Positions 53,615-60,602 of a stretch of 64,000 nt of DNA are shown here, in pieces. Source of the DNA: an uncultured Bacteroides sp. (lineage in GTDB: Bacteria > Bacteroidota > Bacteroidia > Bacteroidales > Bacteroidaceae); assembly GCA_964419245.1 (NCBI GenBank), contig CAYQOV010000003.1, forward strand, positions 21,334 through 85,333, read 5' to 3'. The notes under the pieces were generated by a model that worked only from the letters and a program-made list of their open reading frames with translations, was not told the DNA's origin and searched no databases. Position 1 is the stretch's first letter. Each line of letters starts with the position of its first letter. The translations under genes were made by a program, and so were the position numbers.

Positions 53615-54592
53615 CTAATTGGGGGACACTTCCGCCCAAAGGCATAAGAAAAGCCCCAAGAGATCAGGCACAAAAAATACTTGTGAAAGAATCTCCCGGT
53701 TCATCTGTCCGATACGTTCGTCTGTATGCCGTTTGAAATAGGTTTCAGTAACCTTTACAGATGAATGGCCCATGGCGTGGCTGATCAGCTCCTGCTGGTA
53801 GTTGTGATAATTGGCAATCGTGGCCCAACTGTGACGGGCGCAATAGCTGCTGAGTACCGAACCGATGCCCATCCGGACACCCAGCTGCTTCAAGTCGGCG
53901 TTGAAGTTGCGCAGGGCTGCCTGATAACAACGATAGGCACGAATACCCGTGCCCTTGATAAAGGGGAACAGATAGGGAGAGCTTTCGTCGGAGGTTTTCA
54001 GCTGCTCGATCAGCGACATGGCGCGGGGCTCTACCTGCACGGAAAGCCAGGAACCGGTCTTGCGCCGGCGGTAAACCAGAACATCCCCCTGAAGGTCGCA
54101 CTTACGGAGATAGGCCACGTCGACAAAGGGAATGCCACGCAGCATGAACAACAGCAAGAACAGGAGACGGGCTTTCTCCAGACGGGCGGTGCAGCCGGGT
54201 AACGGTGTGTCCAGCTTGCGGAACACAGACTCGTCGAGCGCCCGTTTCACCGTGACACGGGTACCGGTATAGACTCCCTTGAACAGTCGGGGACGAAACG
54301 GAGCACGTCCCGCATCGACACCGCGGAAATAGACTGCGCGAAGCATGCGCATATAGGTGGAAATGGAGTTCCACTGCAGCTGGCGGTCCAGTAGGTAGTT
54401 CTGGAAACTTTTCAACCAAAGAGGGGTCACCTCACAAAAAGAAAGAGGGACACCCCCGGTGAAGTCGAGCACACGACGCAGCGTACTGCGATAGACGTGT
54501 GCCGTACCGGGGCGTCCCTCTTTCTCCAATTGGAGGATCAGGGCGGCCATACAGGCCGTCAAAGATTCTTTTCCTTTTTTCATAAGCTTCAT
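53615..54592 (-). CDS. Tyrosine site-specific recombinase, probable invertase
   Basis: SAM-like N-domain; catalytic R (LRGIPFVD), K (RRKT), YCARHSWAT, MGH and Y (TETY); no arm-binding domain; adjacent to the inverted repeats. Confidence 0.93.
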   Translation of the reverse strand: MKLMKKGKESLTACMAALILQLEKEGRPGTAHVYRSTLRRVLDFTGGVPLSFCEVTPLWLKSFQNYLLDRQLQWNSISTYMRMLRAVYFRGVDAGRAPFRPRLFKGVYTGTRVTVKRALDESVFRKLDTPLPGCTARLEKARLLFLLLFMLRGIPFVDVAYLRKCDLQGDVLVYRRRKTGSWLSVQVEPRAMSLIEQLKTSDESSPYLFPFIKGTGIRAYRCYQAALRNFNADLKQLGVRMGIGSVLSSYCARHSWATIANYHNYQQELISHAMGHSSVKVTETYFKRHTDERIGQMNREILSQVFFVPDLLGLFLCLWAEVSPN

Positions 54593-57070: not shown

Positions 57071-57394
57071 TCAACAAGAGAAGACACAAACGGGAGGGGC
57101 GCGCAGACGGATGCCGTCGTCCGGCCGACGCAGGCAGAGGCACGACGTACGCGCCACAACCAGCAAGCCCAACAGGGCACAGAAGCAGGGAACGGCAACC
57201 AACAGCACAGGAACGGAGGAAGCCACATAGTGGTCGAGGAAGAAGATGGTCTCGGCCTGGCTCTCGGTGTGCTGATGACCGGTTTTGAAGGGATGCGAAT
57301 GCACAATGATAACTCCGTTCACCACATGTGAGTGGGTGAACAGCGTAACTCCTCCCCAATACGCCAGGAACAGCAGGGGAAGAAAATACTTCAT
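57071..57394 (-). CDS. His-rich membrane/exported leader protein with C-terminal RAPP motif
   Basis: MKYFLPLLFLAYWGGVTLFTHSHVVNGVIIVHSHPFKTGHQH...IRLRAPPVCVFSC. Promoter TTTG (57473-57476)-N20-TATCTTTG (57445-57452) on minus. Confidence 0.85.
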   Translation of the reverse strand: MKYFLPLLFLAYWGGVTLFTHSHVVNGVIIVHSHPFKTGHQHTESQAETIFFLDHYVASSVPVLLVAVPCFCALLGLLVVARTSCLCLRRPDDGIRLRAPPVCVFSC

Positions 57395-57524
57395 AATGCG
57401 GCGCAGTTTCTCCAAAAGCGTTTGTTTATGATTGATTGTGGCGGCAAAGATAGGAGTATTTAGGCGATCCAACAAATTTTCAGTCTCCCCATTTATAAGG
57501 ATTTAAAACAGAATAACGACAAGG

Positions 57525-57560
57525 TGCATCACATTTCGGGACAGGTTTCCCTTATTTTTA
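57525..57560 (+). promoter_or_regulatory. Candidate WYL-regulator box and -7 element for the WYL operon
   Basis: TGCATCA-N5-CGGGACA, a 9-nt spacer, then TATTTTTA. Confidence 0.55.
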
Positions 57561-57655
57561 CAGCATAAAATTGGAACATTTTTTATAAATTTGGAATTAA
57601 AATATTTCACTTAGAAAAAATCAGCAACATACATCTCAAAAGTCTGTAGCATACC

Positions 57656-58567
57656 ATGTCAATACTGAATAAATACATATGGATAGTCGATACCCTGCAT
57701 CAAGCAGGCGAACGCGGTATTTCACTGAAGGAACTGAACGAAAAATGGGTACGCAACGAAGAACTGAGCCATGGTGAATCCATTCCGCGCCAGACCTTTG
57801 ACCGCTGGAAAGGAAATATTTTGGATTTGTTGGGCATAATCATAGAATGTCATACCAAAGGCGGTTATCGGTATTACATTGAAAATCCGGAGGTTTTATC
57901 TGACAGCAAACTGAGCCGATGGTTACTTGATACTTATAGCACAGTCAATGCTCTATCGAAGCATACCGCATTACACAACCGCATTCTAGTAGAGGAAATC
58001 CCTTCAAACAGAAACTTCTTGGCACTCATCATCAATGCCATGAAGGAAAATAAAATTGTAGCTCTCACCTATAAAAATTTCATTTCGGACAAAGAACACT
58101 CATGCCCCATCTGCCCCTATTGCCTGAAGATGTTTCAAAAACGATGGTACACGCTGGCTTTGAGTGTTAATGAAAACAAGTTGCGTATTTATGCACTTGA
58201 CCGAATTGTGAATGCACAACTTACAGAGCAACATTTCACTATACCCAAAGATTTTGATGCAAGGGAATACTTCTCCTCTTATTTCGGAATAGTTCTTGAT
58301 GAAACAGTAAAAGAGCAACGAATTATACTACGCGCTTATAAACCACATCAGAATTATCTTCGAACTCTTCCGCTCCATCCTTCGCAAAAAGAAATATACA
58401 CATGTGAGGTCTATTCAGACTTTGAACTTTTTCTTCGCCCAACCTACGATTTCGTCATGGAATTACTTCATGCCGGAGCATTGGTCGAGGTGCTGGAACC
58501 CGAGTCTTTGCGACAACAGATGTACAGTTGGGTGAAAGATTTGTGGAATATGTACAAGAATAAATAA
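57656..58567 (+). CDS. WYL-domain transcriptional regulator (wHTH-WYL-WCX)
   Basis: N-terminal ISLKELNEKW...IPRQTFDRWK wHTH; CPYCLKMFQKRWYTL...IYALDRI WYL core; YLRTLPLHPSQ and VEVLEPESLR WCX. Confidence 0.93.
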   Translation: MSILNKYIWIVDTLHQAGERGISLKELNEKWVRNEELSHGESIPRQTFDRWKGNILDLLGIIIECHTKGGYRYYIENPEVLSDSKLSRWLLDTYSTVNALSKHTALHNRILVEEIPSNRNFLALIINAMKENKIVALTYKNFISDKEHSCPICPYCLKMFQKRWYTLALSVNENKLRIYALDRIVNAQLTEQHFTIPKDFDAREYFSSYFGIVLDETVKEQRIILRAYKPHQNYLRTLPLHPSQKEIYTCEVYSDFELFLRPTYDFVMELLHAGALVEVLEPESLRQQMYSWVKDLWNMYKNK

Positions 58568-58586
58568 CACTAAAAAATCAAAAGTC

Positions 58587-59390
58587 ATGAAAAAAGAAGA
58601 ATTAGAACTCCGTAAAGCATTTTACAACTTAGAAAAGCAGTACCGCCCTTATTTTGATGTGTTAACAGAGAATCAAGATATATATCCAGAGTACACTGGT
58701 GCAGTTACCATTGACGGATATCTCAATTATAAACCTGAAATACTATTCTTAGGTTATAATCCTGCACATGGAAAATATCGAGACTGGAATAAAGATGGAG
58801 CTCATCTTGTATATACGGGAGAAAGACCATTCGGATTTTTCGAGGTAGGAAATGCACGTAAAAATGGACGACAATGGTGGGAAACCAATCAAGCCAGAGG
58901 AAATTCTTTTCCAGCTAATATTATAGATTTCTTATATCAATATGTGGCAGAATTAGGCATTGATTCTGAATATCAAACATTCAAAAGGCCCAAATGGAGT
59001 AATGGTATCGAATCCAAAATAATGGCTATAAATATCTATCCTATTGCAACCAAATCGAGTAAAGAGTTAATGAATCTTTTCAAAAAGATGATAAATAACA
59101 AAGCAATTCCTGAAATTAAATCATGTGAAGAAGAATGGGATATTCGAAAAATCTTCATTCATCAGATACACGATTTTATAGTAGATTTTGTCAAACCCAA
59201 AGCCATACTATGTATTGGAACCCAAACTATTTCAGATTATACCTGGGGAGAATTTCAAAAAAAGGAAGGAGGTATTATGATATCCCCCAATTATCCCAAT
59301 ATGATAGGAATAAGTAGAAGTGGGACATGGAATACTCGGGCAAAAACAGCAGCTAAATTAATAGCTGATATAGCAAAGCAATACAACTGA
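58587..59390 (+). CDS. Hypothetical protein with a probable uracil-DNA-glycosylase-like fold
   Basis: PEILFLGYNP resembles UDG motif A; also MAINIYPIAT and VKPKAILCIG; no HPS motif B. Confidence 0.6.
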   Translation: MKKEELELRKAFYNLEKQYRPYFDVLTENQDIYPEYTGAVTIDGYLNYKPEILFLGYNPAHGKYRDWNKDGAHLVYTGERPFGFFEVGNARKNGRQWWETNQARGNSFPANIIDFLYQYVAELGIDSEYQTFKRPKWSNGIESKIMAINIYPIATKSSKELMNLFKKMINNKAIPEIKSCEEEWDIRKIFIHQIHDFIVDFVKPKAILCIGTQTISDYTWGEFQKKEGGIMISPNYPNMIGISRSGTWNTRAKTAAKLIADIAKQYN

Positions 59391-59423
59391 TAATTTTTTG
59401 ATATCTATATGTATCTTATCATT

Positions 59424-59464
59424 AAAATAGCTCAACCCTCCATCAACGAGAGTTGAGCCATTTT
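59424..59464. terminator. Probable bidirectional terminator between convergent island genes
   Basis: AAAAT-A-GCTCAAC-C-CTC / GAG-A-GTTGAGC-C-ATTTT stem flanked by A and T runs. Confidence 0.7.
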
Positions 59465-59479
59465 CTTAAATACAAAACC

Positions 59480-59704
59480 TCACCCCATTTTTTCACAAAC
59501 AAGATGCGAAACATTCATCCTCAATTTGTCAAATTTGGTAGAATACTTGGTATTAAATGCTTTTGCAATTATTTCCTGATATTGGTATTGCCCAATAGGC
59601 GGTGTAGTTGATTGCGTACTAAGTTCGATATACATACCTTTGGTCAGTACCATGTCTTTACCCCAATTCCAATTGCTTCTTGCAGAAATTTTCCAGAGTG
59701 GCAT
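59480..59704 (-). CDS. Small hypothetical protein, 74 aa (DUF6140-like, from memory)
   Basis: A-rich translation-initiation region (TTAAAAACTTACAATT-ATG), own -7 box TACTTTTG, and a terminator just after the stop. Confidence 0.7.
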   Translation of the reverse strand: MPLWKISARSNWNWGKDMVLTKGMYIELSTQSTTPPIGQYQYQEIIAKAFNTKYSTKFDKLRMNVSHLVCEKMG

Positions 59705-59753
59705 AATTGTAAGTTTTTAAGTGTTAATACTATTATTGTCTAATTGGTAACGA

Positions 59754-59852
59754 CAAAAGTAAGAACGACCTGTCTCATTCCCTGTTACAAGTCGAAAAAT
59801 ACAGTTTTCCTAAACATGTCACAAAAAATGAGACTGCTACAATGAACATTTG
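59754..59852. promoter_or_regulatory. Divergent promoters, each with a candidate WYL box
   Basis: Minus: TGTAACA-N5-TGAGACA (59789-59771)-N9-TACTTTTG (59761-59754). Plus: TGTCACA-N5-TGAGACT (59817-59835)-N9-AACATTTG (59845-59852). Confidence 0.7.
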
Positions 59853-59880
59853 CTCCATAACTATTAACGAAATCGCAATT

Positions 59881-60414
59881 ATGACAAATCAAACAGTAAA
59901 ATCGGATTTTCTTCATCAAACAATCGAAGAAGAAGCTTGGAAAGAAGTATCAGAACATTTTCCATGGACAGAGACATTATTGGAAAAATTCCAAGATGAA
60001 GTAAATTGGAATCGCATTTCCTACAATAACAATATTGTATGGACAACATCCATGCTTGAAAAATTTAAAAGCCACATCAACTGGAATGTATTTTCATACT
60101 GTACCAACAAAACGGTTTTCACTCCCGAAAACCTTGAAATCTATAAAGACTATTGGGATTGGAACTGTCTTTCCGATTCTCAGGAAATAGAATTCAATTA
60201 TGAGATTATTGATAGGTTCATAAACAAATGGAATTGGAGTAAACTCATCAACAATTATCGTGCTAGCAAAGACATTCCATTTGACGAAAAGTTTTTGAAT
60301 CGTTACTGCAATCATATTCCTACATTTGCTTTATTAAACGGATCTCGCTTATGGAATTGTATAATTAAAGATAGGACCCAAAAACTTAGCTCTAAAATTA
60401 TCCAACAAACATAA
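59881..60414 (+). CDS. Tryptophan-repeat protein (about 25-aa repeats)
   Basis: WTETLLEKFQDEVNWNRIS / WTTSMLEKFKSHINWNVFS / FTPENLEIYKDYWDWNCLS / FNYEIIDRFINKWNWSKLI. ATG 59881 preferred because 59842 lies upstream of the -7 box. Confidence 0.85.
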   Translation: MTNQTVKSDFLHQTIEEEAWKEVSEHFPWTETLLEKFQDEVNWNRISYNNNIVWTTSMLEKFKSHINWNVFSYCTNKTVFTPENLEIYKDYWDWNCLSDSQEIEFNYEIIDRFINKWNWSKLINNYRASKDIPFDEKFLNRYCNHIPTFALLNGSRLWNCIIKDRTQKLSSKIIQQT

Positions 60415-60602
60415 ATACAATTGCAAAAAAGTTTTCTATAATAGTACAAAACAGACGGTATATCCCGTATATAAACAAAATAAATCGAATAAGAGCGATA
60501 AAATCTGAAAAAAAGTCGTCTCTTTGCAACCTGGCGGGATAGATGTTCCGTCTAACAGACAAAGAAAACAAAAAATAAGCAACGAATAAAAGACTGACGA
60601 AT

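Follow-up and report, generated by a model that had tools for sequence, protein, structure and literature searches.

Candidate mobile WYL cassette with a UDG-fold gene in a strain-variable slot of a Bacteroides genome

We analyzed a 64,000-nucleotide (nt) stretch of contig CAYQOV010000003.1 from an uncultured Bacteroides sp. (assembly GCA_964419245.1; the whole stretch is hereafter called the window). It carries a 3-kb island of four genes, in which a WYL transcription regulator stands in tandem with a 267-amino-acid (aa) protein predicted to have a uracil-DNA glycosylase (UDG) fold, next to a divergent pair encoding a 74-aa protein and a tryptophan-repeat (Trp-repeat) protein (Table 1). Our best reading, to which we give roughly even odds (about 0.5) and which leans on analogy with the anti-phage DNA glycosylases Brig1–3, is that the island is a mobile cassette headed by a WYL activator—likely triggered by single-stranded DNA (ssDNA)—and that the UDG-fold enzyme in its variable slot is predicted to excise modified bases from phage DNA. 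This reading is supported by the rarity of the gene, by turnover, and by defense cargo, which occupies this very site in a relative and is also found in sister cassettes.

An AT-rich island with a variable slot

All four open reading frames (ORFs) lie where the original prediction, made from the sequence alone, had placed them, and its description of an AT-rich block amid GC-rich core genes agrees with both overall GC content (0.31–0.41 in the island block versus 0.50–0.60 in the flanks; 0.34 in the UDG-fold gene) and third-position GC (0.25–0.43 versus 0.69–0.76 in four flanking genes). The limits of the island were set by an empty-site contig from sequencing run X13, in which position 57452 is joined to 60508 with 34 letters between. 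We also searched the region against 40 relatives and then fetched loci (G numbers denote genomes, L numbers loci fetched from relatives, and X numbers sequencing runs). In G003, G008, and G023, the site was empty and the flanking genes of the island were immediate neighbors, so that the empty site which the original prediction had proposed to look for was found in relatives as well as in X13. In G011, the closest genome by flank identity, the site held other cargo: an ATPase and a partner matching PADLOC HEC-01A/B (L021:2765-7546, G011:C24), together with an additional 844-aa protein that may be a GH95 fucosidase.

Table 1 Features of the island, in window coordinates
Feature	Position	Strand	Remarks
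Whole island	57453..60507	n/a	Stands in place of a 34-nt spacer that separates the −7 boxes of two divergent core promoters
WYL-WCX transcription regulator, 303 aa	57656..58567	+	Assigned by Pfam domains
UDG-superfamily protein of an unnamed family, 267 aa	58587..59390	+	Predicted base-excision effector; GYNP motif
DUF6140-like protein, 74 aa	59480..59704	−	Pfam DUF6140 E 1.1e-3, below cut-off
All-helical Trp-repeat protein, 177 aa	59881..60414	+	ORF opens at 59842 (190 aa)
Predicted WYL operator 1, TGCATCACATTTCGGGACA	57525..57543	+	9 nt before −7-like box TATTTTTA at 57553–57560
Predicted WYL operator 2, TGTAACAGGGAATGAGACA	59771..59789	−	9 nt before TACTTTTG at 59761–59754
Predicted WYL operator 3, TGTCACAAAAAATGAGACT	59817..59835	+	9 nt before AACATTTG at 59845–59852
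Variable slot	58568..59479	n/a	Bounded by the stops of the WYL and 74-aa genes
Hairpin	59424..59464	n/a	Between the converging UDG-fold and 74-aa genes; −15 kcal/mol, z −6.6

Within the island, the stretch holding the UDG-fold gene is itself variable, as seen when public contigs of four runs—separate contigs from mixed samples—were placed on the window. One contig of X10 matches 57253–58567 with 4 differences and then continues with 558 unlike letters straight after the WYL stop, and a second has 374 unlike letters before its match begins at 59480, where the 74-aa gene stops; read depth in this run was 4–14 over the UDG-fold gene versus 54–86 on either side. X14 has foreign DNA before 59483, and in X9 the slot depth was 16, versus about 45 for the WYL gene. 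The breakpoints in X10 and X14 coincide with gene ends. Near-identical strains hold other DNA in this slot, which is swappable between strains. Separately, X10 shows a further loose end at window position 57452, exactly the left island limit, which suggests yet another allele of the site in near relatives.

All four genes occur at the same site in a sister species (L042, L043). Divergence from L043 at fourfold sites was 7/78 in the UDG-fold gene, 25/98 in the WYL gene, and 9/26 and 6/37 in the small genes, with values of 0.36–0.44 in four core genes; given its low divergence, the UDG-fold gene must have moved between species after the chromosomes split. The island contains no integrase, and the 20 largest repeat families include no direct repeat at its ends, so the likely route of exchange is homologous recombination via the conserved flanks. 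A gene for a 325-aa tyrosine recombinase-like protein lies 3 kb from the island, at 53615–54592 (−), beyond a TonB receptor gene.

The UDG-fold family and its neighborhoods

The predicted model of the 267-aa protein (predicted local distance difference test score [pLDDT] 91) matches structures of the UDG superfamily with the alpha/beta UDG fold, bearing out the fold that had been suggested for it, at about 10% identity to solved UDGs. Searches of Pfam, NCBIfam, PADLOC, and PHROG returned no match for the protein. Conserved in its family are GYNP with N58, N149, T155, P204, G211, and R244. In the UDG superfamily, motif A carries a water-positioning Asn or Asp; here, motif A reads G56-Y57-N58-P59 (family consensus GINPG) and aligns with GEAPG of 4zbx, and N58 is invariant in 76/76 family sequences of 15–58% identity. 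Canonical UDG families 1–6 have His/Asn-Pro-Ser at motif B. The C-terminal loop GISRSG, assigned to this position by sequence order rather than by residue-level structural alignment, departs from the canonical motif, with Arg in 73/76 sequences and His in 1/76.

Weak matches to UDG_fam4 (7/76) and mug (1/76) occur among family members, and the window protein matches neither model. Family-4 UDGs are marked by an Fe-S cluster held by four conserved Cys and by a GE(A/G)PG motif; the four-Cys cluster is not conserved in our alignment A1, where C209 is the sole conserved Cys. The family is rare, being present in 3/250 genomes of the genus and, in another count, in 6/401 genomes. Close cluster members are found in the cultured isolates Bacteroides sp. 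ET489 and B. ndongoniae, making experiments feasible. A Lacinutrix himadriensis member (L036:5971-6837) aligns over residues 14–267 but has an ORF of just 160 aa, and therefore appears broken.

To describe the genomic context of the family, we sorted 60 family ORFs from the fetched loci into 34 groups at 70% identity and set aside 14 with less than 2 kb of upstream DNA. In six of the 20 evaluable groups (our own included, and kin not independent), a WYL gene lies upstream at a distance of at most 2.1 kb, standing immediately in front in three, one of these from another family of the order (L188). Another five of the 20 adjoin type I restriction-modification, CD-NTase with patatin, Shedu, GmrSD_N, TIR, or HNH genes.

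Further gene families recur in such cassettes. A second unnamed UDG-superfamily family, here called UDG2, has an LKD motif A and an HPS motif B and is often found in WYL cassettes and in tandem with the window family (L126:7213-8028, L046:3604-4407, L055, L070–L072, L139, L196); it is present in 11/250 genus genomes, at least four of which have a WYL gene no more than 1.2 kb away from it. Proteins of 209–236 aa with an FxPW(V/I)G motif also lie beside WYL genes (L192:5787-6497, L193:7025-7654, L171:4296-4985); they have no PADLOC match and are possibly a third UDG-like family. In L130, L131, L133, L148, and L194, from several genus genomes, WYL, DEDD exonuclease, and GmrSD/DUF262-type genes stand in a row (GmrSD_N confirmed by Pfam for L130 and L133), and some of these rows have a divergent unit of Trp-repeat and RtcB-like genes.

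The WYL regulator and its predicted operators

The 303-aa regulator has a WYL domain (E 4.6e-12) and a WCX domain (E 4.3e-5), with no Pfam match for a winged helix-turn-helix at the N-terminus; its PADLOC matches are of WYL type only. It reads R163-W-Y-T-L167 where the CapW and BrxR repressors have RWHVR, the motif reported for WYL repressors (PMC11662680). Ala180 occupies the first of two ligand Arg positions, and DdaA is reported to carry the same Arg-to-Ala change (PMC12392091). The nearest sequences in the PDB (E up to 1) are PafBC and further entries, which we take to be DriD; none is named CapW or BrxR.

The palindrome noticed earlier at the island promoters is present at all three, as a 19-bp site of the form TG(T/C)-N13-AC(A/T), which is followed after 9 nt by a sequence matching the −7 box of Bacteroides (consensus TAnnTTTG; PMC12632263). 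Operator 1 would drive the WYL and UDG-fold genes, operator 2 the 74-aa gene, and operator 3 the Trp-repeat gene. Operator 1 is the most degenerate copy; the orthologous site in L042/L043, TGTAACATAATTTGAGACA, has the same spacing and is a better match. The strict form of the operator occurs at three sites in the 3.39-Mb genome, all within the island, and 0–2 times at other spacings; with strict operators so confined, no chromosomal repair gene seems to be controlled by this regulator. A near-identical operator precedes the Trp-repeat homolog of G262, whose WYL protein is 60% identical to ours, and loci with 40%-identical WYL proteins have TGTGCC or TATGCC types, the inner sequence tracking the WYL lineage. 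The general form gave 21 matches at spacer 9 in 14 WYL loci, versus 0–3 at spacers 4–14. Upstream of further WYL genes of the genus, it was found in 10/22 distinct regions at spacer 9, versus 0–1; as the pattern was shaped on the window's own sites, this set of 22 is its sole test on independent loci.

The −33 position falls inside the operator and lacks TTTG. The island promoters have the layout known from activators of the DriD/DdaA type: a pseudo-palindrome covers the −35-equivalent, its distance to the −10-equivalent is constant, and a −35 consensus is lacking. Sites of DriD likewise overlap the −35 element at a constant distance from the −10 element (PMC13004042). With this geometry, the absence of RWHVR, and PafBC and the presumed DriD entries as PDB relatives, an activator of the DriD/DdaA type is likelier than a repressor of the BrxR/CapW type.

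Operator-type sites also lie before cargo in fetched loci without a WYL gene (L027:6918-7204 in G017, L142:7131 in G223, L128:3240 in G110). At E 1e-20, the window WYL protein has no match in G017, whose operator may therefore be orphaned. The hairpin between the converging genes, whose stability was equaled by 0/200 shuffles, is likely a two-way terminator.

Proposed mechanism, rival explanations, and related systems

If the cassette works as we propose, ssDNA from phage replication or DNA damage would bind the WYL domain, and the WYL dimer would bind the 19-bp site over −33 and recruit RNA polymerase, raising expression of its own gene and of the UDG-fold, 74-aa, and Trp-repeat genes. The UDG-fold protein would flip out a non-standard base, with Asn58 positioning the water, and the abasic sites would block phage replication; the 74-aa and Trp-repeat proteins would be accessory members of the regulon. 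Several points weigh against this proposal. Catalysis is uncertain, given Arg in place of His at motif B. Of the evaluable family groups, 14/20 have no WYL gene upstream, lone members sit amid apparent housekeeping genes in L035, L036, L037, L068, and L143, and 12/22 independent upstream regions lack an operator match. The alternative slot alleles are known by their breakpoints and unlike letters, so that any defense gene in them is conjectural. Sister WYL cassettes carry repair-type cargo (RtcB, DEDD exonuclease, metallophosphoesterase, DprA/SLOG), and known WYL activators mostly run DNA-damage regulons. Finally, in the Brig2 study, only one of seven integron UDG-like candidates gave defense (10.1101/2025.10.29.685425).

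Some of these points would suit a local, LexA-independent damage cassette, a doubtful though serious possibility, in which an ssDNA-sensing WYL protein switches on accessory repair proteins and a glycosylase that acts on deaminated, oxidized, or adducted host bases, with phage defense not its main role. The activator geometry is that of DriD and DdaA, the regulators of DNA-damage regulons; RtcB, exonuclease, phosphoesterase, and SLOG proteins are encoded in related cassettes; the GINPG-like motif A is as in the MUG/TDG repair enzymes; and the UDG-fold family gene precedes DUF1848 in L030/L031/L053. However, strict operators are restricted to the island, and the rarity of the gene, its replacement in other strains, and its recent transfer between species fit arms-race genes better than repair genes. 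That the WYL protein is instead a CapW/BrxR-like repressor on the −33 region, released by ssDNA so that a perhaps still defensive cargo is de-repressed, seems unlikely to us: a site over −33 could block polymerase, and an operator at its own promoter with defense cargo is typical of CapW and BrxR (BrxR being linked to BrxU), but the protein lacks both RWHVR and PDB relatives of those names, and a repressor would need neither base-exact spacing nor promoters without a −33 consensus.

We give little credence to the fixed system requiring all four proteins that was originally proposed. The identical gene order in L042/L043 speaks for it, as do the same four gene kinds in one run in G174 and G094 (WYL-UDG2-66aa-Trp-repeat-74aa, thus with a different UDG family), the joint presence of WYL, DUF6140, and the window UDG family in L046–L050 (WYL-exonuclease-UDG2-DUF6140-window UDG family), and that of WYL, Trp-repeat, and a window-family member in G222 (WYL divergent from Trp-repeat-RtcB-like-window UDG family). 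Against it, strains that keep the remaining three genes hold other DNA in the slot, the promoters are three and separate, a terminator-like hairpin parts the converging genes, and no other of the 250 genus genomes has all four families, whose frequencies are very unequal (of 250 genomes, UDG-fold 3, 74-aa 6, Trp-repeat 24, WYL 62). The exact set was found only at the same site in the sister species, and G262 has yet another order (operator-Trp-repeat-PDC-S26-WYL). The gene set is a pool of WYL-cassette cargo rather than a fixed machine. Of the proposed undescribed system, there remain the mobile, WYL-controlled cassette, the operator that its promoters share, and the defense-rich contexts of its families; the 267-, 74-, and 190-aa proteins matched 0 families at E 0.1 in PADLOC-DB 2.0.0, a library of 2023. 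The three cargo genes may be effectors of one response, as had been suggested; the structural model points to plausible effector chemistry for the UDG-fold gene only. Most improbable of all is that the UDG-fold protein binds modified or abasic DNA without catalysis, whether as sensor or as shield, or is neutral hitch-hiking cargo. The His-to-Arg change at motif B and the low identity to solved UDGs would fit, but the motif A Asn is invariant across divergent sequences, and an Asn-Pro-Ser loop is reported to be used by Brig3 too, along with a pocket lined by Trp (10.64898/2026.02.25.707755).

The catalytic, phage-directed reading draws on a likeness to Brig1–3 in fold and context rather than in sequence; no PDB sequence match to the window protein is named Brig. 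Shared features are a patchy distribution, AT-richness, and defense-linked neighborhoods; the island differs in having no ADP-ribosyl glycohydrolase or BapA partner, and Arg244 is near-invariant in the window family. The consulted text on Brig1 lists 42 homologs in five phyla, Bacteroidota not among them, and in it the word WYL occurs 0 times (PMC11078745), and Brig2 homologs include Bacteroidetes (10.1101/2025.10.29.685425). The WYL protein shares its WYL-WCX architecture with DriD (Caulobacter), DdaA (Moraxellaceae), and PafBC, and the island core xxWCA-N5-TGWxx is close to the DdaA motif CGWCA-N5-TGWCG (PMC12392091); unlike in these systems, the promoters are of the Bacteroides −7/−33 type and the predicted regulon is confined to a mobile island. 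As with CapW of CBASS (anti-phage signaling that relies on cyclic oligonucleotides) and BrxR of bacteriophage exclusion (BREX), the WYL gene heads a candidate defense operon with an operator at its own promoter, but CBASS and BREX genes are absent from the island and the geometry fits activation. MUG/TDG (UDG family 2) and family-4 UDGs share the fold and the GINPG-like motif A with the window family, which differs in its roughly 10% identity, its Arg at motif B, and its rare, mobile occurrence.

WYL control of defense, WYL activators, and UDG-fold anti-phage enzymes are thus known kinds already. We did not find in print the window glycosylase family (which was not compared with the Brig2 homolog set), the WYL-glycosylase cassette, or the Bacteroidales operator rule, and the consulted passages of 10.1101/2025.02.28.640651 and PMC13092281 describe none of the three. 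More tentatively, mobile, self-activating WYL cassettes may be widespread in Bacteroidales as inducible docks for enzymes against modified phage DNA, built on one promoter design—the 19-bp site 9 nt before the −7 box—whose sequence varies with the WYL lineage and which could be used to find further unknown defense genes across gut Bacteroidales; the slot would then hold the first member of a new Arg-motif UDG-fold glycosylase family with a new base specificity. If our best reading is right, a glycosylase family from gut Bacteroidales would join the short list of base-excision phage defenses, the base it removes would point to a DNA modification carried by Bacteroidales phages, and a glycosylase effector under a WYL activator would tie ssDNA sensing to modification-dependent defense. 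The operator rule is simple and flags co-regulated cargo without an adjacent WYL gene, as in G017, G223, and G110, a route to unknown defense or damage-response genes.

As for the remaining cargo, neither the 74-aa nor the 190-aa protein scored above the curated cut-offs in Pfam, PADLOC, or NCBIfam. Relatives of the 74-aa protein match DUF6140 with E-values down to 1.7e-12, and its family recurs in WYL cassettes. For the Trp-repeat protein, Met14 (59881) is the most likely start, because the first ATG lies upstream of the −7 box, most homologs start at Met14, and the Atlas has that form. Its model (pLDDT 93) is a helical repeat that Foldseek matches to the tryptophan-repeat proteins of entomopoxviruses and to gp558-563 of Bacillus phage G (E 1e-6 to 1e-4, template modeling score 0.3–0.6), and the 190-aa form matches phrog_3532, a PHROG of unknown function, at E 1e-10. 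To our knowledge, no function is known for the entomopoxvirus "tryptophan repeat gene family"; here, the repeat is a short stand-alone bacterial gene in WYL cassettes. The genus count of 24 given above includes long fusions. In eight of 13 full-length homolog loci, a WYL gene lies no more than about 3.5 kb away, and several of the 13 come with RtcB-like genes, RtcB being confirmed by Pfam in one. In G160 (L141:5562-11646, G160:C1), a 1,798-aa protein combines several Trp-repeat blocks with a DarT domain (Pfam E 4e-17, residues 1272–1456); a DarG macrodomain follows and mobilization genes adjoin. Similar frames of 1,500–1,850 aa occur in G045, G057, G163, and G223, and in this unusually large DarT fusion the Trp repeats might act as a sensor.

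At the left edge of the island, a small ORF (57071–57475, −; about 105–134 aa) with a His-rich motif, HSHP..HxH, lies upstream of the TonB-dependent receptor gene. It has no Pfam match, is kept in all relatives that have the locus, and is perhaps linked to metal uptake.

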